From positions 88,445 through 152,444 of the forward strand of contig CAVPXP010000021.1 in the NCBI GenBank assembly GCA_963709645.1: a stretch of DNA of 64,000 nucleotides, in the 5' to 3' direction. Source of the stretch: an uncultured Gammaproteobacteria bacterium. Its GTDB lineage: Bacteria; Pseudomonadota; Gammaproteobacteria; Chromatiales; Chromatiaceae. The number at the start of each line of letters is the position of its first letter. Position 1 is the stretch's first letter. Below the pieces are notes generated by a model. That model worked only from the letters and a program-made list of their open reading frames with translations, had not been told where the DNA came from and did no database searches. Positions 20,963 to 56,816 of the stretch are shown piece by piece. The position numbers and the translations under genes are program-made.

Positions 20963-20999
20963 GCCGAGTCAGAGAATCCGGCGTTGCCCGGTTATGGAT

Positions 21000-36700: not shown

Positions 36701-37432
36701 GGGCGTCGCGCTCTGCCTGGGACTGCTGCATCAGGTCCGACAGGCTGATCGCGACCAGGACGCCGTTGATGGGCCGGCGCGGCCGATGCTTCTTCAGCAG
36801 GCCCAGAAAGCCGGCCCAGGCGGCGCTGTCCACCTCGGCATAGCTGTCCTGGGTGGTATAGCGCCCGGCGGTGTCCAGCAGCACCGCCTCGTCGGTGAAC
36901 CACCAGTCGCAGTTGCGGGTGCCGCCGATGCCGTGGATGGCGTCCTGGCCGAATTGCTCGGCCAGCGGGAAGCGCAGCCCGGAGTTGACCAGCGCGGTGG
37001 TCTTGCCGCACCCGGGCGGGCCGATGATCAGGTACCAGGGGAGCTGGTAGACCCATTGGCCGCCCAGCCGACGCCGGCCTTCGCTGCGCCTTGAGCACCC
37101 CCATGGCCTCGTCGAACCGCTGGCGCAGCGCCTCAACCTCGTCTGCGGAGGCGACCCGAGCCGGGTCGGGGGCCGCGTCCGGACCGCCGGCGAGCTGCTC
37201 CATGAGCCGGCGGTTGCGCATCCGGGCCAGCGATGGCGGAGACGATCTGGTACAGGGTCCAGCTCCCGAACAGGGTGCCGATGACCCACCAGCGCACGGT
37301 CTCGGAGGCCAGGGGCTCCCGCCCGGCGAATCCGAACAGGGGCCCGACGAACCACACGAGGGCGGCCACCGCCGCGGTTCCGATCAGGGTCAGGAACCAG
37401 CGCGCGCCAAGAAAACCGAACAGTCGCTTCAT
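33749..37432 (-). pseudogene. tssM: T6SS membrane-complex protein TssM (IcmF), at least 8 frameshifts between about 35400 and 37250
   Basis: Start MKRLFGFLGARWFLTLIGTAAVAALVWFVGP (37432). Walker A YLIIGPPGCGKTTAL, then RNCDWWFTDEAVLLDTAGRYTTQD. Fragments in all three frames follow; the C-terminal 492 aa (33749..35227) are intact. Confidence 0.85.
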
Positions 37433-38868: not shown

Positions 38869-38871
38869 GGG

Positions 38872-40211
38872 TTACTCCCGGATCGCCCAGAGCTCGAGTT
38901 GAAGACCCGGAAACTCGCCGCCGATGTGCAGGCCGAACCCGCCGCTCGCAGCGAGCTGCTTCCAGAAGTCGCTCGGTGCGATCCAGCTCGAAATAGTCGA
39001 ACCCCGCAGTGGTAGGGGATCTCCAGCGGGGCCGTGGGCATGGGCCGCAGCGCGATGCCCGGCAGGGCCAGCTTGACCAGCTCCTGAATCTTGTCGATCG
39101 GCCCGATCTTGATCTGCGCCGGGAAGCGGTTGCGCAGCACCTGGGAGTCCACCTGGGCCTGCGCCGCCAGCACGAAGCGGGCGCTGGCGAGCAGCGAGCC
39201 GGTCCGCCACCAGGGCAACCCGAAAGCCGTACTTGCGTTCTTGGATGGGGATCGGTATCGCCCGCTCCACGGTCTCCCGGCTGAGATACTCGCGCAGCCG
39301 ATCGATCAGGGGGCTGAAGGTCGCCTCCAGGTCGTCGTGCCGGTAAGGTGGGAAGTCTGGCGGGCGCTTGGCATCACTGGCAAAGGTCGCCAGATCCCCG
39401 GCAAGCGCCAGCAGGGTGCGGTACAGGGCCTCCGGGTGGAGACCCTGGATTCTCGCCAGATGGATCGACGACGGGCTCGGCGCGATTGATCAGCTGCAGC
39501 AGGAGAAAGTCTGCCCAGTCGGACACACCGCCGCGGCCCACACCGCGCACCCGCCCGGCCCTGGATTCGGCCTGGCGGTGCAGCAGGCCCTGAAGTTCGT
39601 CGACGAAGGCGGCGAGCCGACCGGAGGCCCGGTAGTCGATACAGGGGGGGATGTAGGCGCTGTCGAGGACTGCCTGGCGGTCCGCCCGGCACTCCAGGAC
39701 GCGCGCCAGGCCGCAACAGGCGAACCCGTCCCGGGCGTCCCGGTCCCGCAGCAGGCGAAGGTCCAGGCGGCCGACCTCCATCAGGGTCTCGGTGCCCGGA
39801 CCCAGGGTGTTGTCCCGCACGGTGAGCTCACCGGCTCGATAGCGCAGCATGGTCTCGCGGGGCATCGGGCCCACCGCTCTCCGTTGCCCCAGGGCGGCCC
39901 AGCGGCAGGGCCAGGTAGACGATCTGACCCGCAGCGTCGTCCCCAAGGTCTAGGGGCGGCGGCAGGGGGTCGCTGGTGGGGGCGTCGAAGGGGGTGCCGT
40001 CGGGCAGGATGCCGGCACAGTCGGTGACGGCCAGTTTGCCCAGGGCCAGCAGGTCCTGGTCGATGGAGAGCCGCTTGAGCCCCCACGGATAGGGGGTGCC
40101 GATCCCAGCCTGAGCGCGGGTCAGCCGTTCGAGATAGCGGTCGTGCTGCTGAAAGTGATGAGGCTGCAGAAAGAGCCCCTCGGACCACAGCACCCGATTG
40201 TCCCAGGACAT
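38872..40211 (-). pseudogene. tssK: T6SS baseplate protein TssK, several frameshifts
   Basis: MSWDNRVLWSEGLFLQPHHFQQHDRYLE (hallmark N-terminus). The fragments 39374..39946, 38872..39270 and 38865..39218 continue the protein and end GGFGLHIGGEFPGLQLELWAIRE. Confidence 0.82.
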
Positions 40212-40750: not shown

Positions 40751-42337
40751 TTAGGACGGTCGGCGTCCGCGGGCCTGCGCCAGGCGCAGGATCTGGTCCT
40801 CATAGGCGCGGGTGAATGCCTCGCCGAAGAGTTGCATGAAGTCCTCCGCCGCGTCCGCGGCGACCTGCCCATAGGTCTGCGTGAACTGGTCCCAATAGCG
40901 TGACTTTCGCGCCATGGGCAGGACCTTGTCGAGCCCGGATGCGGTGTCCAGGCGGGCCTCCAGGGCGCTCGGCTCGAACCGGGCCAGGAGTGCGCGCAGG
41001 GCTGCGCGCAACCCTGCGATCATGGCCATTTCGTGGGCCTGGATGTCGTCGAAGGCCTCCCGCGCCGCGTCCAGCGGGGGCATGTAAGCCGGATTGGGGC
41101 GCAGCAGCAGCCGCTCCATGGCCTCTTCCGGACTCACCGAGAATTTGAACGGGTTGTTCTCGGCCCGGCGTATGGTGGTGACCCCGAGGCGCAGCTCGCT
41201 CTTGAATTGGGAGCGGGCCATCATGGTGGTGGTGAGCCCGGCCGTCATTGCCCGCAGGAGGGCGCCCGCGTCGCGCAGGAAGGCCGCCGCATCCTTCACC
41301 TGCCCAGCGTCCCCGCTGCCGAGCCCGGCGAGGAAGGCTGCCAGAAGATCGTCGGATGCTGCTGCGGGGCCAGTTTGGAGCGCCGGCGAGGCGGGAGAAG
41401 GCTGAGGCGGGGATTGCGGCGCGACATGCGGAGGTGGCGCCGGCACCGGACCTGCTGGCTGGGGGCCCTGTGCGTCTGGTGCCGGGGGCACCGTAACGGG
41501 CCCTGGCATGTCGCCGGAACGCCCCTTGGCTGGGGTTACCGGGGGTTCGAATCCCTGTTCCAGGTCCAGATCGAGTGAAAAGTCCAGGTCCGGGCTGGGG
41601 ACAGGTTCGGGCTCCCTGGGGGGAGGTTGCGGGGGCTCGAAGGCGGGCCCTGGCAGGGGAGCGGGCGGTCCCCCGGCCGGGGCGCCGGTTGGCGTCGGCA
41701 GCGCGTCACTGAGCAGGTCGTACCCGTCTGGGATGGCTTGGATCTCCGGGGCGCGGAAGAAGACGTGCTCCACCGGGGTTGGGTGGGGCTCGGCCGCCCG
41801 TGGGCCCTCATCGACGGGTGCCGGGCCCGCGAGAAAGGGGTCCAAGGGGTGGGCGTCCGCGAATGGGTCCTCGGTCTGCCTTTGCTTATTTCCTGCGGGT
41901 TGTCCGCTGTTGCCCCCGAGCAGGTTCATGATGTCCGGTGCGCCGCCGGGACTGCCTATTCCTGGCATGGCCGCCTCATCCACCGCGAAGGGGTCAGTTT
42001 CCTTGACCCTTTCTCCCGAGTCGATGGAGACGGCAATCTCGTAGGGACCGACGGCAATGGTATCCCCGTCGTGGAGCGCCACCGGCTGGCTTGGCGGCAA
42101 GCGGTCCGCAGACTGATTGATGAAGGTACCGTTGGTGCTCTGGTCGATGAGCCAGACCCCGTCGTCGCGGATCTCGACACTGGCGTGGCGACTCGACACC
42201 AGGCGCTCCGGGTCACCCAGGACGAGGTCATTCTCCGGATTGCGCCCCAAGGCGTAGACGCCGCTGCCAACGTGAAGGCTCGCAGCTTGCTCGGGCGGCA
42301 GACCGCGGTAGCTTGTAACCTCCAGGTGAAGCTTCAT
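40751..42337 (-). CDS. tagH: T6SS-associated FHA-domain protein TagH (Fha)
   Basis: From MKLHLEVTS. FHA residues LGRNPENDLVL, VSSRHASVEI, STNGTFIN. Pro-rich linker and conserved TagH C-terminal domain (NNPFKFS...). The track ORF starts 69 nt upstream at 42406. Confidence 0.85.
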   Translation of the reverse strand: MKLHLEVTSYRGLPPEQAASLHVGSGVYALGRNPENDLVLGDPERLVSSRHASVEIRDDGVWLIDQSTNGTFINQSADRLPPSQPVALHDGDTIAVGPYEIAVSIDSGERVKETDPFAVDEAAMPGIGSPGGAPDIMNLLGGNSGQPAGNKQRQTEDPFADAHPLDPFLAGPAPVDEGPRAAEPHPTPVEHVFFRAPEIQAIPDGYDLLSDALPTPTGAPAGGPPAPLPGPAFEPPQPPPREPEPVPSPDLDFSLDLDLEQGFEPPVTPAKGRSGDMPGPVTVPPAPDAQGPQPAGPVPAPPPHVAPQSPPQPSPASPALQTGPAAASDDLLAAFLAGLGSGDAGQVKDAAAFLRDAGALLRAMTAGLTTTMMARSQFKSELRLGVTTIRRAENNPFKFSVSPEEAMERLLLRPNPAYMPPLDAAREAFDDIQAHEMAMIAGLRAALRALLARFEPSALEARLDTASGLDKVLPMARKSRYWDQFTQTYGQVAADAAEDFMQLFGEAFTRAYEDQILRLAQARGRRPS

Positions 42338-42752
42338 CCCCTCCCCTGCCACAGGCCGGCTCCCCCGGGCGCCGCTTTGGAGCCGCCAGAGCTCGTGGAT
42401 CGACAACGCCGAGGGCCGAACTCCATAACTGTCACCGATGTCACCGAATGGACACCCACTGGTTCAAATTTGAAAGATCGCCGCGAATGGAAAACGCGAT
42501 CGCGGATTGCAGCCCCGTCCAACGGCTCAGAGTATAGCGAAGGTCGAGGGCTCCCTTGCCATGGGTCTTGGGCGATGGCCGGGGATGCGACGGCGAGAAC
42601 CTCGATCCGAACACCCTTGCAGTCGGACATCTTCCGCCCTCGAAGCGATGGTGACCCGCAGCTTAGCCCAACGCGGCCGAATGAGGTACCGTCACAGGGC
42701 CCGGCGCGCCGATGCCCTAGCCGGGCCGCAGACCCAACCGACACGCTCAAGG

Positions 42753-43905
42753 GCGCCAGCAGTCGATTACACTGGGGCCGCCGAAGCCGATCCTGCGCGC
42801 CGGTTGCATCGGGGCCAGATGACTGCCTGGGGACGGAGCCGATCGATGAGTCCAGAAGATAACCGGGTCGTGACCCCCGAGGCCGCCGATGACGGCGGAG
42901 CGACGGTCGTGCGCCTGGATCCGGTTGCACCCCATGGCATTGCCCCCGGGACCCTGTTGGTCAACACCTACCGGGTCGAGCGCCTGCTCGGCGGCGGCGG
43001 CATGGGGGAGGTCTATCTGGCCCGCCATACCGGGCTTGAGACCCGGCACGCCATCAAGGTGATCCGCCCCGCCATGGCCATGAACCGCCAGGTCATGGAC
43101 CTCTTTTATCGCGAAGCGCGGGTACTGCGCGGGGTGCGCCACGACGCCGTGGTGAGCTACGACGGCTTCGTGCGAGACGACCAAGGGCGCGACTACCTGG
43201 TCATGGAGTATGTGGAGGGCTCCTCCCTCGCCGACCGGCTGCGCCGCGGGCCGCTCAACCCCGCAGAGGTACTCAGCCTGCGGGACCGGCTCGCCGCCGG
43301 GCTTGCCGAGGCCCACCGCTGTGGGGCGGTGCATCGGGACATCTCCCCGGACAACGTCATACTGCCCGGAGAGCGCATCGAAGCCGCCAAGCTCATCGAC
43401 TTCGGGGTTTGCAAACTCACCGACCCGACCCAGGAGACCATCATCGGCTCCTCCTTCGCCGGCAAATACCGCTACGCGTCGCCCGAGCAGCTTGGCCTGT
43501 TCGGGGGTGGAGTGGACGCCCGCTCCGACATCTACAGTCTGGGTCTGATTCTCGCCGCCGCCGCCCAGGGGCGCCCCCTGGGCATGGGCGACAGCATCGA
43601 GGGCGCGCTGCGCAGCCGCCAGAGCGTACCCGACCTCAGCGGGGTCCCCGCGGGTCTGCGCGACTGGCTCGTGGCGATGCTGCAACCCGACCCTGCGCAA
43701 CGCCCGGCCACCATGGAGGCGCTGCTCGAGCACTGGCCGGCGGCTGGCGGCGGGACGCAGCGGTCGCCGGGTCGCACCGCCACGGAGGCCGCGGCGCGCT
43801 CTGGCCGCGGCCGACGCGGGTTGACGTGGGCGATCGGGCTGGTGTCGCTCGTAGCCGTTGCCGGCGGCCTTTACTGGCTGCTGCGCCCGCTGCCAGTGGT
43901 GGAGC
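42753..43905 (+). repeat. direct repeat copy 1 (kinase 5' module)
   Basis: 42753-43810 matches 49597-50654 (offset 6844). I aligned both junctions nucleotide by nucleotide. Track ORFs in several frames on both strands are identical between copies (43193..43465 = 50037..50309; 43210..43548 = 50054..50392). About 90% identity continues to about 43905. Confidence 0.9.
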
Positions 43906-44996
43906 GCAACCTGGATGCTGCCGCTACCCGGGGTACTGGGGAGACCGAGGCCGTCGCCGTTAAGGACGCCGATGTCGGGCAAGGCCAAACCCTGCGGGAG
44001 CAGCCGCAGCAGGTGGCGGCTAGGCGGGATGACACGGCGCCGGACACATCCAAGGTGGAAGAGCGATCCCAGGTCGATGTCCAACCCGATACGGCGTCGG
44101 ATGGCACCCCTGAGCCTGCACCCGAAGAAGGTCCGTTGCCGAGGGCGGAAAAGCCGCCTGAGCGCGAAACAGTCATCCCTGGCACACGCTTCGCCGATCC
44201 CTTGGCGGGCGGCGGCTCGGGTCCGATTATGGTCTGGCTACCTGGAGGAGAGTTCCAGATGGGCTCCCCTCCGGAAGAGCCGGGTCGCAACCCAGACGAG
44301 CGACTCCATCTGGCACCGATTCCGGAGCCAATCGCGATGAGCGAGACCGAGATCACCCTGGGGCAGTTTCGGCAGTTCGTCCAGGCGACGGGTTACCGAA
44401 CCGAGGTCGACCGCGAATCCACCTGTCTGAGACCGGACGATGCCTGGCAGCAGCTTGTTCCCGACATGAGCCTTTCGTGGCAGTCCCCGGGTTACGAGGT
44501 CACCGACCGGCATCCCGTCGCGTGCGTCAACTGGAGTGATGCGCGGGCATACGCCAAGTGGCTCACGGATACGACGGGCAAAGACTATCGCTTGCCGACG
44601 GAGCAGGAGTGGGAGTACGCGGCCCGCGCGGGGACCCTCACAAGCCGCTTCTGGGGGGACGATCCCAAGGCAGGCTGCAATCTTGCAAACACGGCGGAGT
44701 GCAAAGACGACTATACCTATGCCGCTCCGGCCGGGACTTTCCCGCCCAACCTCTTCGGGCTGCGCGACATGCTGGGTAATCTCGCCGAATGGACTTGCTC
44801 TGAGTATGGGAAAGGCTACAGTGGCAGCGAGGCCCGGTGCAGCGAGGCCGGCGGAGCGTCACCGCGGGTCTTTCGTGGCGGCTCCTGGCTCGATGCCCCG
44901 GAGCTGGTACGGTCTGCCGCACGGGACGGCGCTCCAGCAAACCTCGGCCTCAACACCGTGGGTTTCCGTGTGGTCCGGACCCTGGGCCCTGAGTAG
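42819..44996 (+). CDS. Hanks-type Ser/Thr kinase with TM helix and periplasmic FGE-sulfatase (SUMF1/TagR-like) domain; PpkA-like by context
   Basis: GGGGMGEVYLARH, HAIKVIR, HRDISPDNVIL, IDFGVCK, YASPEQ. TM WAIGLVSLVAVAGGLYWLL. FGE motifs RLPTEQEWEYAARAG, GNLAEWT, FRGGSWL, GFRVVR. Alternative ATG at 42846. Confidence 0.88.
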   Translation: MTAWGRSRSMSPEDNRVVTPEAADDGGATVVRLDPVAPHGIAPGTLLVNTYRVERLLGGGGMGEVYLARHTGLETRHAIKVIRPAMAMNRQVMDLFYREARVLRGVRHDAVVSYDGFVRDDQGRDYLVMEYVEGSSLADRLRRGPLNPAEVLSLRDRLAAGLAEAHRCGAVHRDISPDNVILPGERIEAAKLIDFGVCKLTDPTQETIIGSSFAGKYRYASPEQLGLFGGGVDARSDIYSLGLILAAAAQGRPLGMGDSIEGALRSRQSVPDLSGVPAGLRDWLVAMLQPDPAQRPATMEALLEHWPAAGGGTQRSPGRTATEAAARSGRGRRGLTWAIGLVSLVAVAGGLYWLLRPLPVVERNLDAAATRGTGETEAVAVKDADVGQGQTLREQPQQVAARRDDTAPDTSKVEERSQVDVQPDTASDGTPEPAPEEGPLPRAEKPPERETVIPGTRFADPLAGGGSGPIMVWLPGGEFQMGSPPEEPGRNPDERLHLAPIPEPIAMSETEITLGQFRQFVQATGYRTEVDRESTCLRPDDAWQQLVPDMSLSWQSPGYEVTDRHPVACVNWSDARAYAKWLTDTTGKDYRLPTEQEWEYAARAGTLTSRFWGDDPKAGCNLANTAECKDDYTYAAPAGTFPPNLFGLRDMLGNLAEWTCSEYGKGYSGSEARCSEAGGASPRVFRGGSWLDAPELVRSAARDGAPANLGLNTVGFRVVRTLGPE

Positions 44997-45115
44997 AGCG
45001 GGTGACGCGGCAGACGAATGCGAGGCTGCAAGTCAACAACGAACGGGCGGTCGCACCGGTGCCGCCCAGGGCATCGCGGGCGACATTATTTGGTGAGGAA
45101 GGCGGGTAGACGATC

Positions 45116-46060
45116 ATGAATCAGATAACGGAATCGATTGGGTTTATCCGCGCCCTGAACGCGGCAGCCGCAACACTGGTGCTGGGTGCCTGCGCGTCTT
45201 CGGGTGGGGAGTCCGTTTACCAGCAGGCGGCCGGCGCGAGGGACGACCCGAAGACTATCGAACGCCTCGTCGGCCAGGCGGAGGACCTCACCGTCGTGGA
45301 CTGCCTGCTCCCAGGCAAGATGCGCCGAATGGGGAGCACCATCACCTGGGTGACCCGACCGCGCCCCGTCAAGCAGATCGCGACCGATTGCGAGATCCTG
45401 GGTGGTCAGTACATCCTGTTCGACCGCGCCAATCCAGACACGGCATTGAGTGTATGGACGTCCGCTGCCGAAGCGGGAGATCCTACCGCCCAGACTTATG
45501 TCGGCGAGATCTACGAGCGCGGACTTGGCCGACCGCGGGATTATGGGACAGCGGCCCTCTGGTACCGAAAGGCCGCGGATCAGGGATACCCGCGCGCGCA
45601 GCTGCGGTTGGGGACCCTCTACGAGAAAGGTCTCGGTGTCGAGCGAGACCCGGTCAAGGCTTTGGACCTTTACCGCAAAGCGGCCGGGTTGTCGGAAGAC
45701 AAGGTCGTCTATCTCTCCCAGGCCCTTGCAGCGGCCCGCGCCTCCCAGGCGGCGGAGGCCGGAAAAGCGGCATACCAAGCGAAGGCCCGGGCCCAGTTTC
45801 AGCAGATCCGGTCAGAACGCAGCTCCAGCGACCAAAGGGTCCGCAGTGCGGAGGCACAAGTCGAGCAAGCCAAGGAGGAGGTGGTACGCAGTGGACGCCG
45901 GACACGGACGCTCGAACAACCAACCCCGGCGATCACGGCGAGGGGCAGGCTCATCGATCAGTATGTCGCTGTGACCCAACAGGCCGAAAGTCAGCGACTC
46001 GTGAGCGAAAGCCAGCGGCGCATAGAGGAACTCGCCCAACCCATCGTCGCGCAGAGGTAG
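45116..46060 (+). CDS. Sel1-repeat lipoprotein with C-terminal coiled coil
   Basis: Lipobox LVLGAC. Sel1 units AQTYVGEIYERGLGRPRDYGTAALWYRKAADQGYPRAQLRLGTLYEKGLGVERDPVKALDLYRKAA. Confidence 0.8.
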   Translation: MNQITESIGFIRALNAAAATLVLGACASSGGESVYQQAAGARDDPKTIERLVGQAEDLTVVDCLLPGKMRRMGSTITWVTRPRPVKQIATDCEILGGQYILFDRANPDTALSVWTSAAEAGDPTAQTYVGEIYERGLGRPRDYGTAALWYRKAADQGYPRAQLRLGTLYEKGLGVERDPVKALDLYRKAAGLSEDKVVYLSQALAAARASQAAEAGKAAYQAKARAQFQQIRSERSSSDQRVRSAEAQVEQAKEEVVRSGRRTRTLEQPTPAITARGRLIDQYVAVTQQAESQRLVSESQRRIEELAQPIVAQR

Positions 46061-46479
46061 TGCCTGTCGCAGCGGGTTCGGTCCCGCACCCGTATCCGCT
46101 GGGTCGGCAGGTTCTCGCCTGTCCCCCATTTCCGTGTCCAGCACCCCGAACGCGGGCTGGGCAACGATTCACGCCTCGACGCTCTGGCCCCGTCGGACTC
46201 AGTCGCGGACCAATCATTCTGGCTTGTATCTTTCTCGTCACATCTGGTCACTTTGCGGTAGGTCGTGCGTGACAAGTCGTTGTCAGTGACCTACCTTTAT
46301 CCGGGCATGTGTGGTCGACCGTACGTGTTGCGAATTGCATACAATGGGTGTCCGGTATGCAAACAGTAGAATTCTCGGGACAGATTACGGAAGGCCAAGA
46401 GGCGCGTTTGCCGTCTGGCGCCACGAGGTGGCCGCACGTTTCCGCGCAATGGGTCTTAGAGCAGGCAAGGGGGTAGAAG

Positions 46480-48603
46480 ATGGGAACGGGGCTGATTTGT
46501 TGCACTAGGTGGGGCGGTGATCACCCTGTTGATGGAAGTGATGGGGGCACGCGTTCATTGCGACGCGTCTTTCAGGCGCGCTGGTTACTGTTTCTTCCGA
46601 TCGCTCTCGTCGGCCTGCTTTTTTCCCCCCGAGCCTTTGCGGCTGTCACCACGGCGACGATCGCCGCATCACCAAGCCAGATTAACGAGGGCGGTTCAAG
46701 CGAATTCTCCGTTGCGCTGACGACCGACAGCATCACCGGGGCCCCCCATGATGCCACTGTCGTGGTGGGAGTAGCCGGCTCTGCGACTTTGGGCGTGGAC
46801 TACGAAATTGTGGGATATCCGCAAACCCCAATAACGCTGCAGTTCACCGGCTTCTTAAATGCGACTCAGAGCATCACGGTTAGGGCATTGAACGACACTG
46901 CCTTCCCTGAAAGCCCGGAAAGCATCATTCTCACAGTGACCCAATGCGCCTGGACAAACGCATCGGAAGGGTCGGGATCTTGCCCCACAGGATCTTCGGC
47001 GACAGTGACGATCATCGACGCGACGCCCGCGCCGGTCGCCACCATCGAGGCAACCTCTGGCAACGGTCAAGTGGCGTCGACGGGCGTGCCCTTGCAGCCG
47101 TTCGTCGTGACGGTCACGTCGGACGGTTCCCCCGCGGCGGGCGTCCCGATCGTGTGGACCCTGGTAAGCGGTGGGGGGTCCTTGTCCAATGGTCGGACGC
47201 TGACCGACGCCCAAGGACAGGCCAGTTCGACCCTGACGCCGAGCAGCAACGGCGAGTTCGTCGTCAGGGCGCAGGTCGAGGGTACGACTCAATCGGTCAC
47301 ATTCACCGCCTTGTTCAACCCGCTCGCCGGCCTGCCCGGGCTTACGGGTCCCCAGCGTTCGATGGCGACGACCCTGGATACCCTCTGCCCTAAGCTCGCC
47401 GGGACTGCCGATCAAAGGGCCCTGACGGCCGGCGAGCAGGATCTGCTCACTCAATGTCAGACGCTGATCAGCAGCTCCGTGACCGATCCCAGCGCCGCTG
47501 CGCAAGGCGTGGCGGCCTTGACACCCGAACAGGCAAGTGCTCCGCGCAAGCTTGCCACCCAGGTCGCCGGTTCCCAGATCGACAACATCGTGACACGCCT
47601 GATGGCACTCCGCCGCGGAGCGCGGGGCATCAGTCTGCGCAATCTGACCGCTAACATGGACGGCCAGAGCGTCGACGGTAATACGGCTGAAGGCGTGTCA
47701 AAGCAACTGGGCGGAACGGGCGGTGGGGCGAGCGCCGATGACACCTATGAGTTTGAGCGTTTGGGCATCTTCATCAACGGCAACATTGATTGGGGCAGCA
47801 AGGACAGGAGTGCCAACGAAGACGGATTCGATTTTAGTACCCAGGGGATCACCGCGGGCGTCGACTACCGGTTTTTGGAGGGTCTGGTGTTGGGGCTTGC
47901 GTTCGGATATGGCAACACGGATGCCGACATCGACTCCAATGGCGGCGATATCGGCGCCAACGCCTGGAGCAGCACCATTTACGGAACCTACTACGCGACG
48001 GATCACTTCTACGTGGAGGGATCTGGGATGTATGGCTGGAATAATTTCGATCAGACCCGCAACATCAGCTACAGCCTCCTTGGCGGGGCGCGCGAGGCCA
48101 ATGCAGACTTTGGCGGCAGTCAATATGCCCTCATGTTTGGGACGGGATACGACTTTATACGCGGCCCGGGAATCCTCGACATCTACGGACGTTTGAGGTA
48201 CGTGAAGGTGGATCTCGATAGCTACCGTGAACAGGGCGCGTCCGGTTTGGACCTCACCATCGACGGCCAGGAGGCAACCTCCTTGATGAGCATCCTCGGC
48301 GTCAACTACACGGGTTCCATCAGCCTTGCCAAGGTCGTGCTGGTTCCTCAGGGCTGGTTCGAGTGGCTGCATGAGTACGACGATGGCGACGATGAGGTGA
48401 CCGGAGTCTTCGTTAACGATCCGAACCGTATCCCCTTTGCACTGGCGACCGACAGCTTTGACACCGACTCCTTCCGCGTCGGCTTGGGGGTCGGGGCCCA
48501 GTTCGGGCAGGGTAGAACGGCCTTTGTGACCTACGAGGCGCGCGTGGGGCTCAATAATTACACCGAGCAAACGGCGAATTTCGGCGTGCGTCTGGACTTT
48601 TAG
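46480..48603 (+). CDS. autotransporter outer-membrane protein with Calx-beta-like and Ig-like passenger domains
   Basis: Signal LLFLPIALVGLLFSPRAFA. Calx-beta-like GSATLGVDYEIVG...ITVRALNDTAFPESPESIILTV. Invasin-like Ig VTVTSDGSPAAGVPIVWTLVSGGG. C-terminal beta-barrel with alternating aromatic pattern ending NFGVRLDF. Confidence 0.8.
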   Translation: MGTGLICCTRWGGDHPVDGSDGGTRSLRRVFQARWLLFLPIALVGLLFSPRAFAAVTTATIAASPSQINEGGSSEFSVALTTDSITGAPHDATVVVGVAGSATLGVDYEIVGYPQTPITLQFTGFLNATQSITVRALNDTAFPESPESIILTVTQCAWTNASEGSGSCPTGSSATVTIIDATPAPVATIEATSGNGQVASTGVPLQPFVVTVTSDGSPAAGVPIVWTLVSGGGSLSNGRTLTDAQGQASSTLTPSSNGEFVVRAQVEGTTQSVTFTALFNPLAGLPGLTGPQRSMATTLDTLCPKLAGTADQRALTAGEQDLLTQCQTLISSSVTDPSAAAQGVAALTPEQASAPRKLATQVAGSQIDNIVTRLMALRRGARGISLRNLTANMDGQSVDGNTAEGVSKQLGGTGGGASADDTYEFERLGIFINGNIDWGSKDRSANEDGFDFSTQGITAGVDYRFLEGLVLGLAFGYGNTDADIDSNGGDIGANAWSSTIYGTYYATDHFYVEGSGMYGWNNFDQTRNISYSLLGGAREANADFGGSQYALMFGTGYDFIRGPGILDIYGRLRYVKVDLDSYREQGASGLDLTIDGQEATSLMSILGVNYTGSISLAKVVLVPQGWFEWLHEYDDGDDEVTGVFVNDPNRIPFALATDSFDTDSFRVGLGVGAQFGQGRTAFVTYEARVGLNNYTEQTANFGVRLDF

Positions 48604-49499
48604 GGGCGAGTCTCTGCAGTTGCCGGATGGGCCTGAAGCGCTTGCAGGTCCAACGCGAATTGGTGATGCGTGAGCCCAGCGAGGATGGCCGGCCAGGCGT
48701 GCTCCCAGCAGCACCGATGGTCGAAACCGGGTACGACAACGAATTGCGCGTTCGGCTGGCCGGCTGCGGTTGGCCCTGACAAGCCGGTAGGGACCTGGAG
48801 GTCCCGTTTGCCCGCAAGGTGGATCTGTCGGATGTGGGCCGGCAGTGGTGGCTGTGTTGCCGGGTTGAGGGAGCCTCGGAGGCGGCTGTAGCCGTGGTGA
48901 TCCGCCCAAGCCGTGACGTCCAGATTGGCGGCAATCGTTATCACGCCTCGTACTTGCTCCATCCGCGCGGCAATGAGCATGGCCAGCACCCCACCTCCGC
49001 TGTAACCGATGAGTGTGACCTCGCGGTCGCTGCCGTGGCCCAAGGCACGCTGCAGAGCCGCGGTCATGCTCCTTACGACTTCCTCGCTATAGCGTCCCTG
49101 TGTCCACAGCCAAGGCGAGCAGCCGGGAGATTCTGCCAGCCCCTGGTAGCAGGGGCGCCCGATGTAGAGGGCCGGACCGGGATCGTGCGACATGAGTTGT
49201 AGCGCGAGAGGAGTCCGGGGGGTCGGATCCCGGGCAATACGTGTGCGGGTAATCCAAGGGAGGCCGTCCCCTTCGAGGTAGACATGCACAGGGCTCGACT
49301 TGTCCCAACTCCCCTGGCGGTAGACTAGATGTTGGAAGGGGTCCCCCGCGATCATCGATTGGTCGCGGCCGACCGCTTCCTTATGGACCCCGGTCCTTTG
49401 TAATGGCCAACTGCAGCCGAGGATGCTGAAGATCAACGAACCGGCCATGAACAGGGCCCAGCGCTTCAATAGACGCCACTCCAAGATAGTGAATACCAA
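48600..49499 (-). CDS. alpha/beta hydrolase lipoprotein
   Basis: Signal plus lipobox LFMAGSLIFSILGC. Nucleophile elbow LIGYSGGG. TTG start at 49499 (alternative ATG 49448). Its 3' end overlaps the autotransporter stop by 4 nt, convergent. Confidence 0.7.
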   Translation of the reverse strand: MVFTILEWRLLKRWALFMAGSLIFSILGCSWPLQRTGVHKEAVGRDQSMIAGDPFQHLVYRQGSWDKSSPVHVYLEGDGLPWITRTRIARDPTPRTPLALQLMSHDPGPALYIGRPCYQGLAESPGCSPWLWTQGRYSEEVVRSMTAALQRALGHGSDREVTLIGYSGGGVLAMLIAARMEQVRGVITIAANLDVTAWADHHGYSRLRGSLNPATQPPLPAHIRQIHLAGKRDLQVPTGLSGPTAAGQPNAQFVVVPGFDHRCCWEHAWPAILAGLTHHQFALDLQALQAHPATAETRP

Positions 49500-49596
49500 C
49501 GCTGGGGGTCGTTGTCGGACAGCCGACGGTGCATCGGTTGAAGGGCTTGACCACCACTGCCTAGTATAGGAGCACGCCCCAACCCGGGGCCCCTGA

Positions 49597-50749
49597 GCGC
49601 CAGCAGTCGATTACACTGGGGCCGCCGAAGCCGATCCTGCGCGCCGGTTGCATCGGGGCCAGATGACTGCCTGGGGACGGAGCCGATCGATGAGTCCAGA
49701 AGATAACCGGGTCGTGACCCCCGAGGCCGCCGATGACGGCGGAGCGACGGTCGTGCGCCTGGATCCGGTTGCACCCCATGGCATTGCCCCCGGGACCCTG
49801 TTGGTCAACACCTACCGGGTCGAGCGCCTGCTCGGCGGCGGCGGCATGGGGGAGGTCTATCTGGCCCGCCATACCGGGCTTGAGACCCGGCACGCCATCA
49901 AGGTGATCCGCCCCGCCATGGCCATGAACCGCCAGGTCATGGACCTCTTTTATCGCGAAGCGCGGGTACTGCGCGGGGTGCGCCACGACGCCGTGGTGAG
50001 CTACGACGGCTTCGTGCGAGACGACCAAGGGCGCGACTACCTGGTCATGGAGTATGTGGAGGGCTCCTCCCTCGCCGACCGGCTGCGCCGCGGGCCGCTC
50101 AACCCCGCAGAGGTACTCAGCCTGCGGGACCGGCTCGCCGCCGGGCTTGCCGAGGCCCACCGCTGTGGGGCGGTGCATCGGGACATCTCCCCGGACAACG
50201 TCATACTGCCCGGAGAGCGCATCGAAGCCGCCAAGCTCATCGACTTCGGGGTTTGCAAACTCACCGACCCGACCCAGGAGACCATCATCGGCTCCTCCTT
50301 CGCCGGCAAATACCGCTACGCGTCGCCCGAGCAGCTTGGCCTGTTCGGGGGTGGAGTGGACGCCCGCTCCGACATCTACAGTCTGGGTCTGATTCTCGCC
50401 GCCGCCGCCCAGGGGCGCCCCCTGGGCATGGGCGACAGCATCGAGGGCGCGCTGCGCAGCCGCCAGAGCGTACCCGACCTCAGCGGGGTCCCCGCGGGTC
50501 TGCGCGACTGGCTCGTGGCGATGCTGCAACCCGACCCTGCGCAACGCCCGGCCACCATGGAGGCGCTGCTCGAGCACTGGCCGGCGGCTGGCGGCGGGAC
50601 GCAGCGGTCGCCGGGTCGCACCGCCACGGAGGCCGCGGCGCGCTCTGGCCGCGGTAGGCGCGGGTTGATGTGGGCGATCGGGCTGGTGTTGCTCGTCGCC
50701 ATTGCCGGCGGTCTTTACTGGCTGCTGCGACCGCTGCCAGTAGTGGAGC
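49597..50749 (+). repeat. direct repeat copy 2 (kinase 5' module)
   Basis: See copy 1. The first mismatch is at 50655 versus 43811, just before the TM helix codons. Confidence 0.9.
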
Positions 50750-51181
50750 CCCAACCGGAGCCAGTACCCAACCGCAACCGCAACCGCAACCCCAACCGCA
50801 ACCCCTGCCATGGGGGAACTCCGTGACCTAATCCGCGAGGGCCGACTGGATGACGCCTTCGCGCTGGCCCAGGACCGCTTGAGCGCCGGGAGGCCACCCC
50901 CGGCAGAGGATCTCTGGGCACTGGGCCAAGGGTTGCTCAAGGCGCGGCGACTCGATCAAGCCTTCGCCCTGATCCGGGAGCTGGCGAACGCCGGACACGG
51001 CCCCGCTGCCTTCGCCTTGGCAGAGATGTACGATCCGTTGCATTGGTCCAAGGACAACTCGCCCTTCTCCAAGCCCAATGGGGCCAAGGCGCGAGACTGG
51101 TACCGTCGTGCTGCCGAGGCTGGGGTGCCAGACGCCGATGCGCGACTCAAGGCCGTCGATAGTGCCGAGGAGGCGCCATGA
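49663..51181 (+). pseudogene. Hanks-type Ser/Thr kinase paralog with TM, Pro-Gln linker and Sel1-like periplasmic domain; one frameshift near 50767
   Basis: The kinase domain is residue-identical to 42819..44996 up to GRGRRGL. TM WAIGLVLLVAIAGGLYWLL. The (CAACCG)n tract reads PNRNRNRN in the track frame and PQPQPQPQPQPLPWGELRDL in the frame of ORF 50810..51181 (AAFALAEMYDP...ARDWYRRAAEAG). Confidence 0.8.
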
Positions 51182-53202
51182 TGCATATGTCGACCCGCCT
51201 CGGGGTTGTGGCAAGGGTCCTTGCGGTAGTCCTGGTCGGCCTCGGAGCCGCGGCGGCTGCGGCTGCCGAGCGGCAGGCCCTGCCCATGCCGGGCAAGACC
51301 AGCCTCTATCAGCGGGTGTTGACCCGCCCCGGCGCCGCTCTGCGGGATGCCCCGAGCACGACGGCCCGGCGCGGTGCCGAGGTGCCGCCGCTGAGCGTCT
51401 TCCACGTCTACGACCGGCGGCAGGTCCAGGGCTCGGACTGGCTGGAGTTGGGCACCGCCGCCGCGGATGCCGCTGTCGGCTGGCTCGCGGCGGCCGAGGT
51501 CATCGACTGGCGTCAGACCCTCACTGTCGCCTTCACGCGTAACGCCGATCGGGAGCCGGCCCTATTCTTTCGTGAGCGGGGGGGGCTGATGGGGCTACTT
51601 GAGTCCGAGACCCTGGTACCGGAGACTGAGCGCCTGCGTGCGGCGATTCGGGAGGGCCGGATCCCGGAGGGATTTCCGGTGATCGCCAAGGAGCCGGATA
51701 CCTATGTGGATCCTAACCGCCAATTCTATCTGCTGCCGATCCTGGCTCACGAGCAGGTCGACCTGGAAAGCGGCCTGCGTGCGACGGTCTTGGATGTGGC
51801 GGCGGTGACGCTCCAGGCAGGGGATCCGGACCTGCTCGCCCAGGGTGCGGGGGGCGGCGGCGGTGCGTCAGCGGGGACAGGGGATGCCCCGGCTGGGGCG
51901 CCTGCGGACTATCGTGCCGGGGTGGTCTTCGTGGTCGACACCACAACCTCCATGGGTCCCTACATCGACCGCACCCGCGCGGCCATCCGCCGCATCTACG
52001 ATCGGCTCAAGGGCTCGCCGATGGGCGACGCACTGAGCTTCGGACTGGTAGCCTTTCGGGACAACACCGAGGTGACCCCCGGCCTGGAGTATGTAAGCCG
52101 GGTGGCTGCCACCCTGGAGGACGGCCGGGACCCGTCGGGCTTCTTCGGCAAGGTGAACCGCGTGGAGGCGACCAATGTCTCCAGCCGGGGGTTCAACGAG
52201 GATGCGTTTGCCGGGGTCTACGACGCCATCGAGTCCATCGACTGGCGGGGCTACGCGGGCCGTTTCGTCGTGCTGATCACCGACGCCGGCGCGCGCGAGG
52301 CCAATGACCCCCTATCGCGCACCCACCTGGGGGCCGAGCGCCTGCGCCTCCTGGCCCAGGAAAAGGACCAGACTGCCGGCGGCGGCAAGATCGCCATCGC
52401 GGCCCTGCACCTCCTCACCCCAGAGGGCCGCCAGACCCATCAGCTCGCCGCTGCCCAGTATCACACCCTGACCCGCTGGGGTGACGCCGGTGACCTCTAT
52501 TTCCCGGTGAAGGGGGGCTCGGTGGATGCCTTCGGCTCCCAGGTGGATGCGCTTGCCGACGCCCTGGTGCAGCAACTGGAGGGCATCCGCTCGGGCCGAA
52601 TCATTCAGGTGCCCGAGGGACCTCAGGCCACTGAGGTGGAGCGCAAGACCGCCCTGGTCGGGCGTGCCATGCAGCTCGCCTATCTGGGGCGGGAGGCCGG
52701 TAGCCGGGCGCCGCGCCTGATCGATGGCTGGGTCAGCGACCGCGACCTCACGGACCCGTCCCAGAAGGTTCTGGAGGTGCGGGTCCTCATCGGCAAGAAC
52801 CAGTTGAGCAACCTCCAGGAGACCCTGGAGGCCATCGTTGCCGCCGGGGAGCGTACCACCATGACCGCCAAGGACTTCTTCGGCCAGTTGCGGGGTGCCG
52901 CGGCGGCCCTGGCTCGTGACCCGGACAAGGTCAGCACGTTGCAGGTGAAGCGCCTGGCGGATGTGGGCCTGGTGGGGGAGTGGCTGGACGATCTGCCCTA
53001 CACCAGCCAGATCATGAATCTTACCGAGTCCCGTTGGCTGGCGCGCTCCTACGCGGAGCAACAAGAGGTGCTGGACGCCATCGAGGAGAAGATCCGGCTC
53101 TACCGCCGCATCCATGACGATACGGACCGTTGGATCGATCTGAGCGGGCGCGCCTCCAAGGGCGAGTCGGTCACCACCATCCCCTTGGACGCCCTGCCCT
53201 GA
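51178..53202 (+). CDS. secreted/periplasmic vWA-domain protein
   Basis: Signal VLAVVLVGLGAAAAAAA. MIDAS-type VVFVVDTTTSMGPY, then VVLITDAG. Long helical C-terminal region. ATG overlaps the kinase stop (ATGA). Confidence 0.8.
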   Translation: MMHMSTRLGVVARVLAVVLVGLGAAAAAAAERQALPMPGKTSLYQRVLTRPGAALRDAPSTTARRGAEVPPLSVFHVYDRRQVQGSDWLELGTAAADAAVGWLAAAEVIDWRQTLTVAFTRNADREPALFFRERGGLMGLLESETLVPETERLRAAIREGRIPEGFPVIAKEPDTYVDPNRQFYLLPILAHEQVDLESGLRATVLDVAAVTLQAGDPDLLAQGAGGGGGASAGTGDAPAGAPADYRAGVVFVVDTTTSMGPYIDRTRAAIRRIYDRLKGSPMGDALSFGLVAFRDNTEVTPGLEYVSRVAATLEDGRDPSGFFGKVNRVEATNVSSRGFNEDAFAGVYDAIESIDWRGYAGRFVVLITDAGAREANDPLSRTHLGAERLRLLAQEKDQTAGGGKIAIAALHLLTPEGRQTHQLAAAQYHTLTRWGDAGDLYFPVKGGSVDAFGSQVDALADALVQQLEGIRSGRIIQVPEGPQATEVERKTALVGRAMQLAYLGREAGSRAPRLIDGWVSDRDLTDPSQKVLEVRVLIGKNQLSNLQETLEAIVAAGERTTMTAKDFFGQLRGAAAALARDPDKVSTLQVKRLADVGLVGEWLDDLPYTSQIMNLTESRWLARSYAEQQEVLDAIEEKIRLYRRIHDDTDRWIDLSGRASKGESVTTIPLDALP

Positions 53203-53930
53203 TGGCCCCCTCGCCGCCGGTCTATCTGTGCCGGGCACTTGTGAAGCGTCGGCAGGCAGGGGGAACCCGATTCGAGCTCCTGGTGCCGGAGCTGAGGGTC
53301 CGCCCGGGGGAGGTGGTAGTCCTGCGCGGCCAGAGCGGCTGCGGCAAGAGCACCCTCCTCGACCTGCTCGCGTTTGCGCTCAGGCCCGACGGCGCCGAGA
53401 CCTTCAGTTTTCATCCGGAGCACCGTCAGCCCACGGATCTGCTCCGGCTCTGGGGGCGGCGCGACCTGGACGGGCTCGGGCGGCTGCGTGGCGCCCACGT
53501 CGGCTATGTGCTCCAGACGGGCGGACTCTTGCCCTTCCTTACCGCCCGGGAGAATATCGCCCTGTCCTGCCGCCTGTTGGGGCAGGACCCGGCCGGTCTC
53601 GTCGAGCGCCTCGCGGAGCGGCTGGGCATCGGCCCGCAGCTCGACAAGAATCCAGGCCAGCTCTCGGTGGGGGAGCGCCAGCGGGTCGCCATCGCCCGCG
53701 CCCTGGCTCACCGCCCGAGTGTGCTGCTGGCGGATGAGCCTACGGCCTCGGTGGACCCGGTGAATGCGGCCGCTATCCTGGATCTGCTCTTGGAACTGGT
53801 GCGCCAGGCGGGGGTGACCGCGGTGATCGCGAGCCACGACTGGCACCCGGACGGGATCCCCGGGGTCCAGGTGCTCGAGCACCGCATCGAGCGCGACGGC
53901 GAGACCACGCGATCGCTGTTCTGGAACTGA
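53202..53930 (+). CDS. ABC transporter ATP-binding protein (LolD/MacB-type; TagT-like by context)
   Basis: Walker A GQSGCGKST, signature LSVGERQRVAIARAL, Walker B VLLADEPTASVD. Start overlaps the vWA stop (TGATG). Confidence 0.88.
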   Translation: MAPSPPVYLCRALVKRRQAGGTRFELLVPELRVRPGEVVVLRGQSGCGKSTLLDLLAFALRPDGAETFSFHPEHRQPTDLLRLWGRRDLDGLGRLRGAHVGYVLQTGGLLPFLTARENIALSCRLLGQDPAGLVERLAERLGIGPQLDKNPGQLSVGERQRVAIARALAHRPSVLLADEPTASVDPVNAAAILDLLLELVRQAGVTAVIASHDWHPDGIPGVQVLEHRIERDGETTRSLFWN

Positions 53931-53937
53931 CGATCCC

Positions 53938-55156
53938 ATGCGCCCCAATCGGGAGATCCTGCGCCTGGCGTATCGGGACTTCGCTCACGAGCGGCGTATC
54001 TCGCTGTGCTTCGTGCTTGGCCTTGATGGCGGTGCTGGCGCCGCTACTGGTCCTGTTCGGTCTCAAGTTCGGTCTGGTGGACACCCTGGCCCAGCGCCTG
54101 GTCGAATCGCCTGCCAATCGGGAGGTCTTGGCGGTGGGCAGTCGGAGCTTCGACGAGGCCTGGTTCGCCCGCATTGCGGCCCGAGCGGACGTGGCCTTCG
54201 TGGTCCCCAACACCCGTCGCATCGCCGCAAGCCTCAGCCGGCTCATGAGTCCCTCCAAGGGGACCGAACTGCGCGCCCTGCAGATGATCCCCACGGGCGC
54301 GGGCGACCCCCTGCTCGGGGCCCCTGGCCTTGCACCCTCCGGTGTGACTGAGCTGGTCCTTTCCGCGGCTGCGGCGCGCAAGCTGGCGGCCGTACCGGGT
54401 GACCGGCTGGTGGCGCGCATCGACCGCCACCGCAACGGCCAGGACGAGGGCGTGGTATGGGAGCTGACCGTCACCGGGGTCCTGGCCCCAGAGGCCCTGG
54501 TGGAGGAGGCGGCCCTGGTGCCCCTGGCGCTTCTGGTCGCCACCGAGGACTATCGGGACGGGGTCGCGGTGCCGGAGTTGGGCTGGGAGGGCTCCGAGCC
54601 CCCGCCCCGCCCCCGGACCTATGCCCGGTTCCGGCTCTATGCGACCAGCATCTACAAGGTGGCCGAACTGGCCGCGGATCTGACCGCCGAAGGCATCGAG
54701 GTGCGTACCCAGGTGGCCGAGATCGCCGCGGTGCAGTCCCTGGATCGGAACTTGACCCGGGTCTTCTGGCTGATTGCCCTGATCGGGACACTGGGCTTTC
54801 TGGCCTCGCTCGCGGCCAACCTGCTGGCCAACGTGGAGCGCAAGCGCCGGGAACTGTCCATCGTCCGGCTGATCGGCTTTCCAACCCTGAGCCTGGTCCT
54901 GTTCCCGGTGACCCAGGCGGTGTTGGTGGCGATGCTGGGTGCCCTTGCTGCACTGGCCCTGTACCTGCCTGTCGCTACCGCGCTGAACGGCTGGTTCGCC
55001 GAAAGCCTGCAACCGGGGGAATCCATTTGCCGGCTGCTGCCCGGTCACGTCATGAGTGCGCTCGCTGCGACTTTGCTCGGTGCGGCGGCCTCGGCCGCCT
55101 GGGCCGGCTGGCGAGCGGCGCGCATCGAGCCTGCCGAGGGACTGAGAGATGTCTAG
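53938..55156 (+). pseudogene. FtsX-like ABC permease (TagS-like by context), one frameshift near 54015
   Basis: MRPNREILRLAYRDFAHERRISLCFVLG in frame 53938, continuing as LMAVLAPLLVLFGLKFGL in frame 54017. Large periplasmic loop. C-terminal FtsX helices RKRRELSIVRLIGF... Confidence 0.8.
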
Positions 55157-56816
55157 TGTATCTTTTGCGCGGTTGCTGGCTGCCCTGTTCGGGACCCTTG
55201 TCCTGGCGCTGGGCTCCGGCCTGGCCTCTGCCGATCAGGCCGCGGGGCCCGTGACCTGGCCGGAGAAGTTCTTCAACCCGACGCCGGCGGCCGATGATCT
55301 GGTGCTGCCCCTGGCGTGCGGCGGCGCCATGGTCTTTCGCCCCGTGGAGATCCCCTCCGACAACCTGTTGGACGACCGTCAGGTGGAACTCGGCCAGAGC
55401 GATGCCGATCGCGGTTACAAGGAGGGTCGGCGTTTGAGCCACCTGGCCGGCGCATTCTCGGAGCCGTCATCGGCGGCGCGCCGATACTACATCGCCAAAT
55501 ACGAGACGACCCGCGATCAATACGCCGCCCTGACCGCTGAGACCTGCCCCACACCCTCGATGCAGGGACGTTTGCCCATGACGGAGGTTAGTTGGTTCGA
55601 TGCGGTGGACCTGGCGCGCCGCTACACGGAGTGGCTGCTCGCCCACGCGCCCGACGCCATGCCCCGGGAAGATCGCGAGCCGGGTTTCCTGCGCCTGCCC
55701 ACGGAAGAGGAGTGGGAGTTCGCCGCCCGCGGGGGGCTGATGGTCGACGAGACGGACTTTCTGGCCCCCGTCTTTCCCATGCCCGAGGGCGACCTCGCAC
55801 GCTATGCCTGGTTCGAGAGCACCCGTTCCGCGGAGGGCAGCCTCCACCCCGTCGGGCTGCTGAAGCCCAATCCCCTGGGCCTTCACGACATCCTCGGCAA
55901 CGCCGCCGAGATGACCCTGGTTCCCTTCCACCTGGATCGACGGGGCCGCCCCCACGGTCAGGCCGGTGGATTCGTCAGCCGCGGCGGCGACGTCTTCACC
56001 CCCGAGAGCCAGCTGGGCAGTGCCGTGCGCCAGGAGCACAACTATTTCAACGGCGCAACCGGGCGCGCCAAGACGCTGGACAGCCTGGGCTTCCGTTTGG
56101 TGCTGACGGCCCCGGTGATCGTCTCCCCCCAGCGCCTGGACGCGATCAAGCAGGCCTGGTCGGTGTTGCCCGCCCTGACCGGGGATGCGGGGGGCGATGC
56201 GGCTCAGGCCCTCGCGGACCTCCGACAGTTGGCCGAGCAGTCCCAGGACCAGGCACTGCGCGCCCGTCTGGAACTGATTCAGCGAGACATGGAGCGGAGC
56301 CAGTCTGCGATCAACGAGGCCCGCGCCCGTACCATGCGCGCCCTCCTGCGCCTCGGTGCCTTTCTCGGGAAGCGGGTGGTCACGGACCGACAGAAGGCGC
56401 GGGCTATCGAGCAGCTTATCGGGCTTGCAGAGGGCCGCTTCGATCGCTTCGCTGCGGAAGTCTCCGGCCGGCAAGGCTCTGACGCGGCGATCGATGAGGC
56501 CCGCGCGTCCCTCAAGGACAAGATGGCGAAGTGGCAGACACAGCTCGATGAGATCCGTGAGAGTCTGGACAATAGCCTGTCCTATTACGGCGATACGGTG
56601 ATTGGCGTGGGTCGGGATTTCGGAGAGCAGGAGGTGGGAGCGGGGATCGAGGTCGTGAACGATGAGTTTCACCTGAAGCAGAACGCCTACTTGATCCCAT
56701 ACGCGGCGCAGTTCGTGGCACACATGGCGGCCTACCGTCTCAATGGACAAGCGGACAAGGGTTCCTGGCTTGGCGACCTTGATCGGATCGGTGCCGAACG
56801 AGGGCCAGTACCCTGA
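55149..56816 (+). CDS. periplasmic FGE-sulfatase (SUMF1) domain protein with C-terminal coiled coil (TagR-like by context)
   Basis: Signal LLAALFGTLVLALGSGLASA. FGE motifs YYIAKYETT, RLPTEEEWEFAARGG, GNAAEMT, GFRLVL. About 200-aa helical tail. 8-nt overlap with the permease gene. Confidence 0.8.
   Translation: MSSVSFARLLAALFGTLVLALGSGLASADQAAGPVTWPEKFFNPTPAADDLVLPLACGGAMVFRPVEIPSDNLLDDRQVELGQSDADRGYKEGRRLSHLAGAFSEPSSAARRYYIAKYETTRDQYAALTAETCPTPSMQGRLPMTEVSWFDAVDLARRYTEWLLAHAPDAMPREDREPGFLRLPTEEEWEFAARGGLMVDETDFLAPVFPMPEGDLARYAWFESTRSAEGSLHPVGLLKPNPLGLHDILGNAAEMTLVPFHLDRRGRPHGQAGGFVSRGGDVFTPESQLGSAVRQEHNYFNGATGRAKTLDSLGFRLVLTAPVIVSPQRLDAIKQAWSVLPALTGDAGGDAAQALADLRQLAEQSQDQALRARLELIQRDMERSQSAINEARARTMRALLRLGAFLGKRVVTDRQKARAIEQLIGLAEGRFDRFAAEVSGRQGSDAAIDEARASLKDKMAKWQTQLDEIRESLDNSLSYYGDTVIGVGRDFGEQEVGAGIEVVNDEFHLKQNAYLIPYAAQFVAHMAAYRLNGQADKGSWLGDLDRIGAERGPVP

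Follow-up and report, generated by a model that had tools for sequence, protein, structure and literature searches.

Two PpkA-like kinases with an identical kinase module and unrelated sensors: probable concerted evolution by gene conversion in a Chromatiaceae type VI secretion locus

How two receptor kinases with unrelated sensor domains come to carry the same kinase domain, identical to the last nucleotide, is the question raised by a type VI secretion system (T6SS) locus of an uncultured gammaproteobacterium of the family Chromatiaceae. The window, i.e., the whole stretch of DNA analyzed here, covers 64,000 nucleotides of contig CAVPXP010000021.1 (positions 88,445 to 152,444, forward strand) of assembly GCA_963709645.1, a metagenome-assembled genome (MAG) of 4.2 Mb in 50 contigs, 84% complete and with 4.65% contamination. 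The locus is the T6SS threonine-phosphorylation cluster of this MAG and it encodes two PpkA-like Ser/Thr kinases, K1 and K2, in tandem. Direct comparison of both stretches showed that 42753-43810 equals 49597-50654, a repeat of 1058 bp that is 100% identical in the assembled sequence, made up of the conserved 5' leader and the kinase/juxtamembrane module of the two genes. The copies are direct repeats lying 6.8 kb apart, and a search of the whole MAG returned these two only.

42753..43810, + strand: repeat copy 1, with the 93-nt conserved leader and K1 codons 1-322 (kinase domain and juxtamembrane segment); Pkinase match
49597..50654, + strand: repeat copy 2, with the same 93-nt leader and K2 codons 1-322
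42846..44996, + strand: K1, 716 aa, with a PpkA-like Hanks kinase, one transmembrane (TM) helix and a periplasmic FGE-sulfatase (TagR-like) domain
43811..43905, + strand: K1 TM segment, 89% identical to 50655-50749
50655..50749, + strand: K2 TM segment, partner of 43811-43905

The limits of the repeat are sharp on the left and graded on the right. Upstream of it the two copies are unlike, with flanks only about 25-35% identical, while rightward the identity falls from 100% to 89% and then to none: 10 of the 95 positions are mismatched between 43811-43905 and 50655-50749 (seven synonymous changes and three amino-acid changes, T/M, S/L, and V/I, in the TM helix), and beyond 43905 and 50749 K1 and K2 are alike at background level. 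Given the divergence of the 95-bp flank, the chance of 1058 identical bases would be about 1e-51. A sequence-only reading of this DNA had reported the same equality, followed by about 95 bp at roughly 90% and then no similarity, and the comparison bore it out at both points. It had also set the left edge of the repeat 66 nt upstream of the first ATG; the edge does lie upstream of the start, but homologues support the ATG at 42846 and 49690 (MSPEDNR...) rather than that at 42819 and 49663 as the likely start codon, and the repeat therefore begins 93 nt upstream of it. Pfam recognized a Pkinase domain in K1 (1e-37) and in K2 (1e-38), and the motifs of the shared module are intact (glycine loop GGGGMGEVY, AIK, HRD, DFG, and SPE). 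Orthologues of K1 are 63-85% identical to it, and its ectodomain, already described as FGE/TagR-like from the letters alone, indeed matched FGE-sulfatase (PF03781, 3.6e-55, residues 469-720).

Relatives of the locus place this identity in context. Two gene types recur among them, kinases with an FGE-type sensor as in K1 (K-FGE) and kinases with a Sel1/TPR-like sensor as in K2 (K-Sel1), and both are widespread. In the usual Chromatiaceae layout the gene of an FHA protein is followed by K-Sel1, a VWA-like protein, an ABC ATPase and, further on, TagR (L039, L040, L157, and others), while in another layout the order is FHA, K-FGE, Sel1 lipoprotein, autotransporter, and hydrolase (L038). The window combines the two in tandem (FHA, K-FGE, Sel1 lipoprotein, autotransporter, hydrolase, K-Sel1, VWA, ABC), an order which is the same in L231 and which was found in three further assemblies (L231, L232, and L233); K-FGE and the three genes behind it are hereafter called block A, and the genes following K-Sel1 block B. 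L231, a 30-kb JGI contig, contains both kinase copies complete, with a direct repeat of 1057 bp at 98.5% (14 mismatches and 2 gaps by BLAST) spaced 7424 bp, the pair being 98.8% identical over 912 columns of the multi-locus alignment. L232 represents this strain again, recovered from a different sample, and its 7.7-kb contig starts and stops within the repeat (308 bp, 99.0%); the L233 contig (GCA_041307785.1) stops 345 bp into the second kinase. A contig of a same-genus MAG (G002:C13, L234) carries the Sel1-like domain, VWA, and TagR and ends at 10072, 78 bp inside the 3' end of the module; the kinase module is absent from the G002 bin, as expected of a collapsed 1-kb repeat contig.

Across these loci the kinase module follows the genome and not the sensor. 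Its DNA identity was 80-89% between species as compared to 98.8-100% within assembled pairs. A tree of the DNA sequences placed the window pair in one group and the L231/L232 copies in another, with the maximum number of changes for the sensor-type label, while an approximately unbiased (AU) test rejected the FGE-type modules as one clade (p = 1.2e-7). The protein tree of 116 kinases likewise had the FGE and Sel1 types intermixed, with P0001 (FGE) and P0009 (Sel1 type) as near-identical sisters. The sensor halves, the block A genes and the block B genes are, for their part, each orthologous across the tandem species, which leaves no reasonable case for independent duplications. What was observed directly is the repeat, the tandem synteny common to these loci and the excess of within-genome over between-species identity, and we consider it probable that K1 and K2 are an old tandem pair under concerted evolution by gene conversion, and not the outcome of a recent duplication. 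The sequence-only reading had left the choice between a very recent duplication and ongoing gene conversion, and had proposed to compare orthologous loci: with the tandem layout recurring in species 11-20% diverged, and with modules grouping by genome rather than by sensor type, conversion was retained and recent duplication was not.

Other histories have nonetheless to be weighed. A very recent segmental duplication that placed the 5' half of the kinase gene before a second sensor gene would account for both the perfect identity and the sharp left boundary, but the same architecture, with orthologous sensors and orthologous blocks A and B, is present in L231, L232, and L233 despite their 11-20% divergence, the homology of the 89% flank is older than the identical tract, and K-FGE and K-Sel1 are both old gene types, which makes such an event highly improbable. 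Very unlikely, too, is a recent acquisition of block A with its own kinase from a close relative, through a Campbell-type integration that used the kinase module and thereby duplicated it. Block A does occur as a portable four-gene module in other contexts (L237, L038), same-genus genomes are mostly without a detectable copy, and loci with K-FGE only or K-Sel1 only lie beside FHA at a similar distance (L038, L039, L157); however, a single crossover between diverged modules would yield two reciprocal hybrids and not identical copies, which leaves the need for conversion in place, tandem loci appear on more than one branch of the tree, and no integrase or insertion sequence (IS) was found in or adjoining block A. 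That one copy is a pure artefact, either a chimeric join of strains or a duplicated contig end, is hardly credible. The source is a MAG with some contamination, as given above, but the hydrolase-to-kinase junction, which exists in the tandem order only, was obtained independently in four assemblies from other samples (L231, L232, L233, and L151), and a chimeric join in the source MAG is therefore ruled out; moreover, different and orthologously conserved sensors follow the two copies, and G002:C13 breaks inside the module as contigs do at repeats.

A further explanation accepts the pair and its near-identity as real and takes only the strict 100% for a product of assembly, with one repeat consensus written in both places by a long-read assembler or with short reads mapping to both copies during polishing, so that a small number of real differences would be concealed. 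The genome is a 50-contig MAG whose close relatives are MFD 'contig_N' long-read assemblies, the L231 copies, assembled apart, differ at 14 sites, and the differences retained in the window begin only at the repeat edge, where reads can anchor. The same contig also carries an indel-rich patch, with about 26 single-base insertions at 35400-39900 with respect to the intact L038, mostly outside homopolymers, and its consensus quality is therefore uneven. On the other side, the two copies (2 x 1058 bp) contain no frame errors, which gives good support to this stretch of the contig, and the sharp step from 100% to 89% fits a conversion endpoint. We regard an inflated identity as unlikely, and it would alter when the last conversion took place but leave the mechanism as it is. 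Still, the chance that a repeat-collapsed consensus or short-read polishing raised the identity to exactly 100%, as well as the indel-rich patch, must be counted against a history of conversion between old tandem copies, together with the frame break of K2 in the assembly, which leaves room for a pseudogene whose 5' half merely receives conversions, the metagenomic origin of the loci, whose species relationships consequently rest on neighboring-gene trees, and the presence of a fully assembled pair outside the window in L231 only.

The frame break divides K2 into the following parts.

49690..50826, + strand: K2 5' part, with the kinase, the TM helix and the start of the linker; in-frame TGA at 50824-50826
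50755..50815, + strand: K2 frame break, a (CAACCG)n tract with C4/C5/G5 runs, with translations in three frames
50810..51181, + strand: K2 Sel1/TPR-like ectodomain, a 123-aa open reading frame (ORF) in the +1 frame relative to the kinase frame

Aligned to the intact orthologue L121, the kinase and Sel1-like frames of K2 are parted by one extra base or by two missing bases, and the 'PQPQPQ' reading is the third frame, which ends at the TAA at 50829-50831. In 75 related kinases of 480-570 aa the C-terminal ~120 aa are matched by the 123-aa ORF, its counterpart being fused to the kinase in every case; in Pfam the ORF returned a sub-threshold PPR_2 match only, its homologues P0035 and P0098 carry Sel1 (PF08238), and P0009 is labelled 'TPR repeat protein' by one source. 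The PQ linker plus Sel1-like domain that had been read from the letters thus survives as a Sel1-like ORF but not as a continuous frame, for which one or two single-base corrections are needed; in the same way, the two kinases of that reading are both Pkinase proteins by Pfam, but they are not two intact genes in the assembly. An assembly indel is a plausible cause of the break, because the same contig carries the ~26 single-base insertions at 35.4-39.9 kb, although K2 may be a real pseudogene. Defects were also noticed in kinase genes of the relatives. In L233 the K-FGE orthologue (5436-7460, P0003) is without ~54 codons (162 bp), including the glycine loop and the AIK lysine, which the second copy has, and judging from this gap the FGE-type kinase is probably catalytically dead. 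In L231 frame breaks occur at 17400-21700 in three genes, those of the second kinase, the VWA protein and the ABC protein, while block A and the genes of the T6SS core are intact; this may reflect either a decay of block B or errors of the assembly at this place.

The mechanism that we infer from these observations is a repeated overwriting of the cytoplasmic half of one gene (leader, Hanks kinase and juxtamembrane segment) by that of the other, which would proceed by non-reciprocal homologous recombination. The latest tract would have its left end at a 16-nt motif of the leader, where homology starts, and its right end at 43810, a position that falls within the homology. An older tract, with K1 as putative donor, would have run through the TM helix to 43905: the TM segment of K2 is nearer to the FGE-type TM segments of other species (78-81%) than to those of the Sel1 type (64-73%), and the segment 43811-43905 points to a remnant of an older and longer conversion tract in the window lineage. 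In L231 the TM segments of K-FGE and of the second kinase are 54% alike, as compared to 89% in the window, and the tract begins about 50 bp further upstream than in the window, which points to independent conversion tracts in different lineages. The sensor halves (FGE/TagR-like vs. Sel1/TPR-like) are non-homologous, and conversion therefore would stop short of them. As for the donor of the latest tract, no direction could be read, the FGE- and Sel1-type modules being fully intermixed. Between L231 and L232 three sites differ in 7733 bp, all of them in the K2 copy of the repeat, a pattern that fits either continuing exchange or assembly mixing between the copies.

The left end of the tract coincides with the conserved part of the leader.

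42762..42777, + strand (second copy at 49606-49621): 16-nt motif GTCGATTACACTGGGG, at the left edge of the repeat

The motif starts nine bases inside the left end of the repeat and gave two matches vs. 0.04 expected by chance. When seven upstream regions are aligned, its columns form a conserved block, and in all the species examined it is conserved ahead of the kinase gene, be it of the K-FGE or the K-Sel1 type. The intergenic regions upstream of the motif are not alignable, and the left tract end is therefore the point where homology begins. Since the leader region had no match in Rfam, and a sigma-70 promoter scan of both kinase upstream regions no consensus match, we can only infer from its conservation that the motif may be a -10-like promoter or a leader element.

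If the exchange between the repeats took the form of a crossover rather than of a conversion, it would delete or amplify block A (the FGE ectodomain, the Sel1 lipoprotein, the autotransporter and the hydrolase), and its removal would leave exactly FHA followed by K-Sel1. In the tree of VWA and TagR the K-Sel1-only L039 is sister to the tandem L231 (support 100/99), and the window (tandem), L157 (K-Sel1 only) and G002 fall within the same clade (98/98). The layout of L039 would fit a pop-out of the inter-repeat block, which is more economical than two identical gains. Recombination between the copies had been predicted to excise or amplify the intervening segment and to swap sensors; excision agrees with the position of L039 next to L231, while a sensor swap does not follow, a simple crossover of direct repeats giving deletion or amplification only. 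In the short-read contig L151 (1-2828) the 5' end of the hydrolase gene is joined to a kinase module and FGE sensor; such a junction would be expected if block A had been excised as a circle or amplified in tandem, and also if the assembly had taken a wrong path through the identical repeat.

As a module, block A is both old and portable. Its representative in L237 (494-11982), with K-FGE, Sel1 lipoprotein, autotransporter and hydrolase, lies outside any T6SS cluster and adjoins the genes of a PP2C phosphatase, of an FHA protein and of an FHA-EAL protein, a setting that suggests a phosphosignalling module in its own right. Moreover, the same FGE sensor is paired with two different kinase modules in Chromatiaceae: a 786-aa protein of L041 (5941-8301, - strand), encoded divergently beside a K-Sel1 operon, has an FGE ectodomain 83% identical to that of K1 and a kinase domain ('KinX') only 27% identical. 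An origin of K-FGE via repeated replacement of a different kinase module such as KinX may have involved one swap or more, the FGE-ectodomain tree being a basal polytomy on which at least two changes were counted and the starred branches force only one.

In the H1-T6SS of Pseudomonas aeruginosa TagQ and TagR act on PpkA, probably dimerising it, and Fha1 is the sole PpkA substrate (PMC13713981). The window resembles the TagQRST-PpkA-PppA-Fha1 system in having a Hanks-type membrane kinase beside a T6SS FHA protein, a PP2C phosphatase and TagF upstream (seen in relatives), and a TagT-like ABC ATPase, a permease and a TagR-like FGE protein downstream. It departs from it in the presence of two predicted kinases, where P. 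aeruginosa has one. Neither kinase has the periplasmic VWA domain of PpkA, a VWA-like protein being instead a separate gene; the FGE-sulfatase domain that K1 shares with TagR is fused behind the TM helix and is not a free periplasmic protein, and the ectodomain of K2, unlike that of PpkA, is a Sel1/TPR-like domain of ~120 aa. The TagR-like domain fused to K1 gives a Rosetta-stone style hint which fits the TagR-PpkA contact in P. aeruginosa (PMC13713981).

By analogy, Fha is the presumed substrate of both K1 and K2, and two different envelope inputs would likely drive one phosphorylation output on the same Fha. The identity of the modules may be neutral and result from frequent conversion between 1-kb direct repeats, or it may be favored, both modules having to fit the same Fha, phosphatase, and dimer partner, with a benefit that is putative. 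A bolder proposal sees the identical module as a recombination handle which makes cassettes of the sensor blocks, with block A popped out or amplified in natural populations and with selection keeping the identity for K1-K2 heterodimers that feed one Fha/PppA circuit; the L151 junction (hydrolase side, repeat, FGE sensor) is offered in its favor, as expected for an excised circle or a tandem amplification, but we hold this proposal to be quite doubtful.

Concerted evolution by gene conversion is well known, and the present locus would extend it to T6SS receptor kinases. Long-lasting concerted evolution is regarded as rare in prokaryotes: Wang and Chen (2018; PMC6053082) list 26 genes, kinases are not among them, and the word 'kinase' has 0 matches in the text of that article. 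As with tufA/tufB and those 26 genes (PMC6053082), the paralogues of the present locus are closer within a genome than orthologues are between species, in several lineages, and the duplication predates speciation. A domain-limited homogenization has been described for mtrA-1 and mtrA-2 of methanogens, two paralogues which a fusion or divergent regions set apart outside the homogenized portion (PMC6053082). Differently from cases of the tufA/tufB type, K1 and K2 are homogenized in part only (leader, kinase and juxtamembrane segment), the rest being non-homologous, and the copies are in tandem. Partial conversion of the babA/babB type in Helicobacter pylori is domain-limited as well, and the bab chimeras serve adhesin variation. 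K1 and K2 share with the mtrA and bab pairs the confinement of homogenization to part of tandem or dispersed paralogues; they belong to other protein families, and what is homogenized in them is the signaling output and not the variable surface part as in bab. The interest of the locus lies in two receptor kinases whose sensor halves are unrelated and in which homogenization is restricted to the output half, a natural case of 'many sensors, one output' which recombination would maintain, as opposed to selection acting on each copy by itself. Near-identical repeats of 1 kb also break short-read assemblies (L232, L233, and G002), and they can mislead annotation and binning.

The remaining genes of the cluster surround the two kinases as follows.

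40751..42406, - strand: T6SS FHA protein (Fha/TagH type), divergent from K1; Pfam FHA and T6SS_FHA_C (3e-59)
45116..46060, + strand: Sel1-repeat lipoprotein (block A); Pfam Sel1 (4e-21)
46480..48603, + strand: autotransporter with Big_1 passenger (block A); Pfam Autotransporter (7e-53)
48600..49499, - strand: alpha/beta-hydrolase-like protein (block A), with weak Abhydrolase matches; 5' end toward repeat copy 2
51178..53202, + strand: secreted VWA-like protein, 674 aa, first block B gene after K2, with weak VWA matches; orthologous in all K-Sel1 loci
53130..56816, + strand: TagT-like ABC ATPase, permease and TagR-like FGE protein (rest of block B); Pfam ABC_tran and FGE-sulfatase

The Sel1 lipoprotein gene comes after K-FGE in every relative examined, the TagR-like FGE gene is a separate gene at 55149-56816, and the synteny of block B is kept in L039, L157, and L040. 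Upstream of the cluster the relatives encode PP2C, TagF, TssM, TssL, TssK, and TssJ. A search of the window with L038 proteins found no tssA, vipAB, or hcp, and the sheath protein VipB is encoded on other contigs of the genome. The insertions at 35400-39900 split tssM, tssL, and tssK into several frames, with the rest of the window keeping long frames; the patch represents either poorly polished assembly or decaying genes of the T6SS membrane complex.

Directly after the TagR-like gene, the interval 57157-58056 (- strand) encodes a 299-aa protein with TIR_2 (9e-22) followed by FHA (2e-18); this ORF had been considered as a second copy of the hydrolase, which was rejected, the TIR-FHA protein being unrelated to it. 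Next to it, an element of 172 bp (56991-57162) with terminal inverted repeats (TTAGGCGATT...AATCGCCTTAG) is single-copy in the window and 76-82% conserved in L038, where it lies between autotransporter and hydrolase in the opposite orientation, and in L039, where it follows the Gly-zipper genes; it may be a small mobile element or a structured one.

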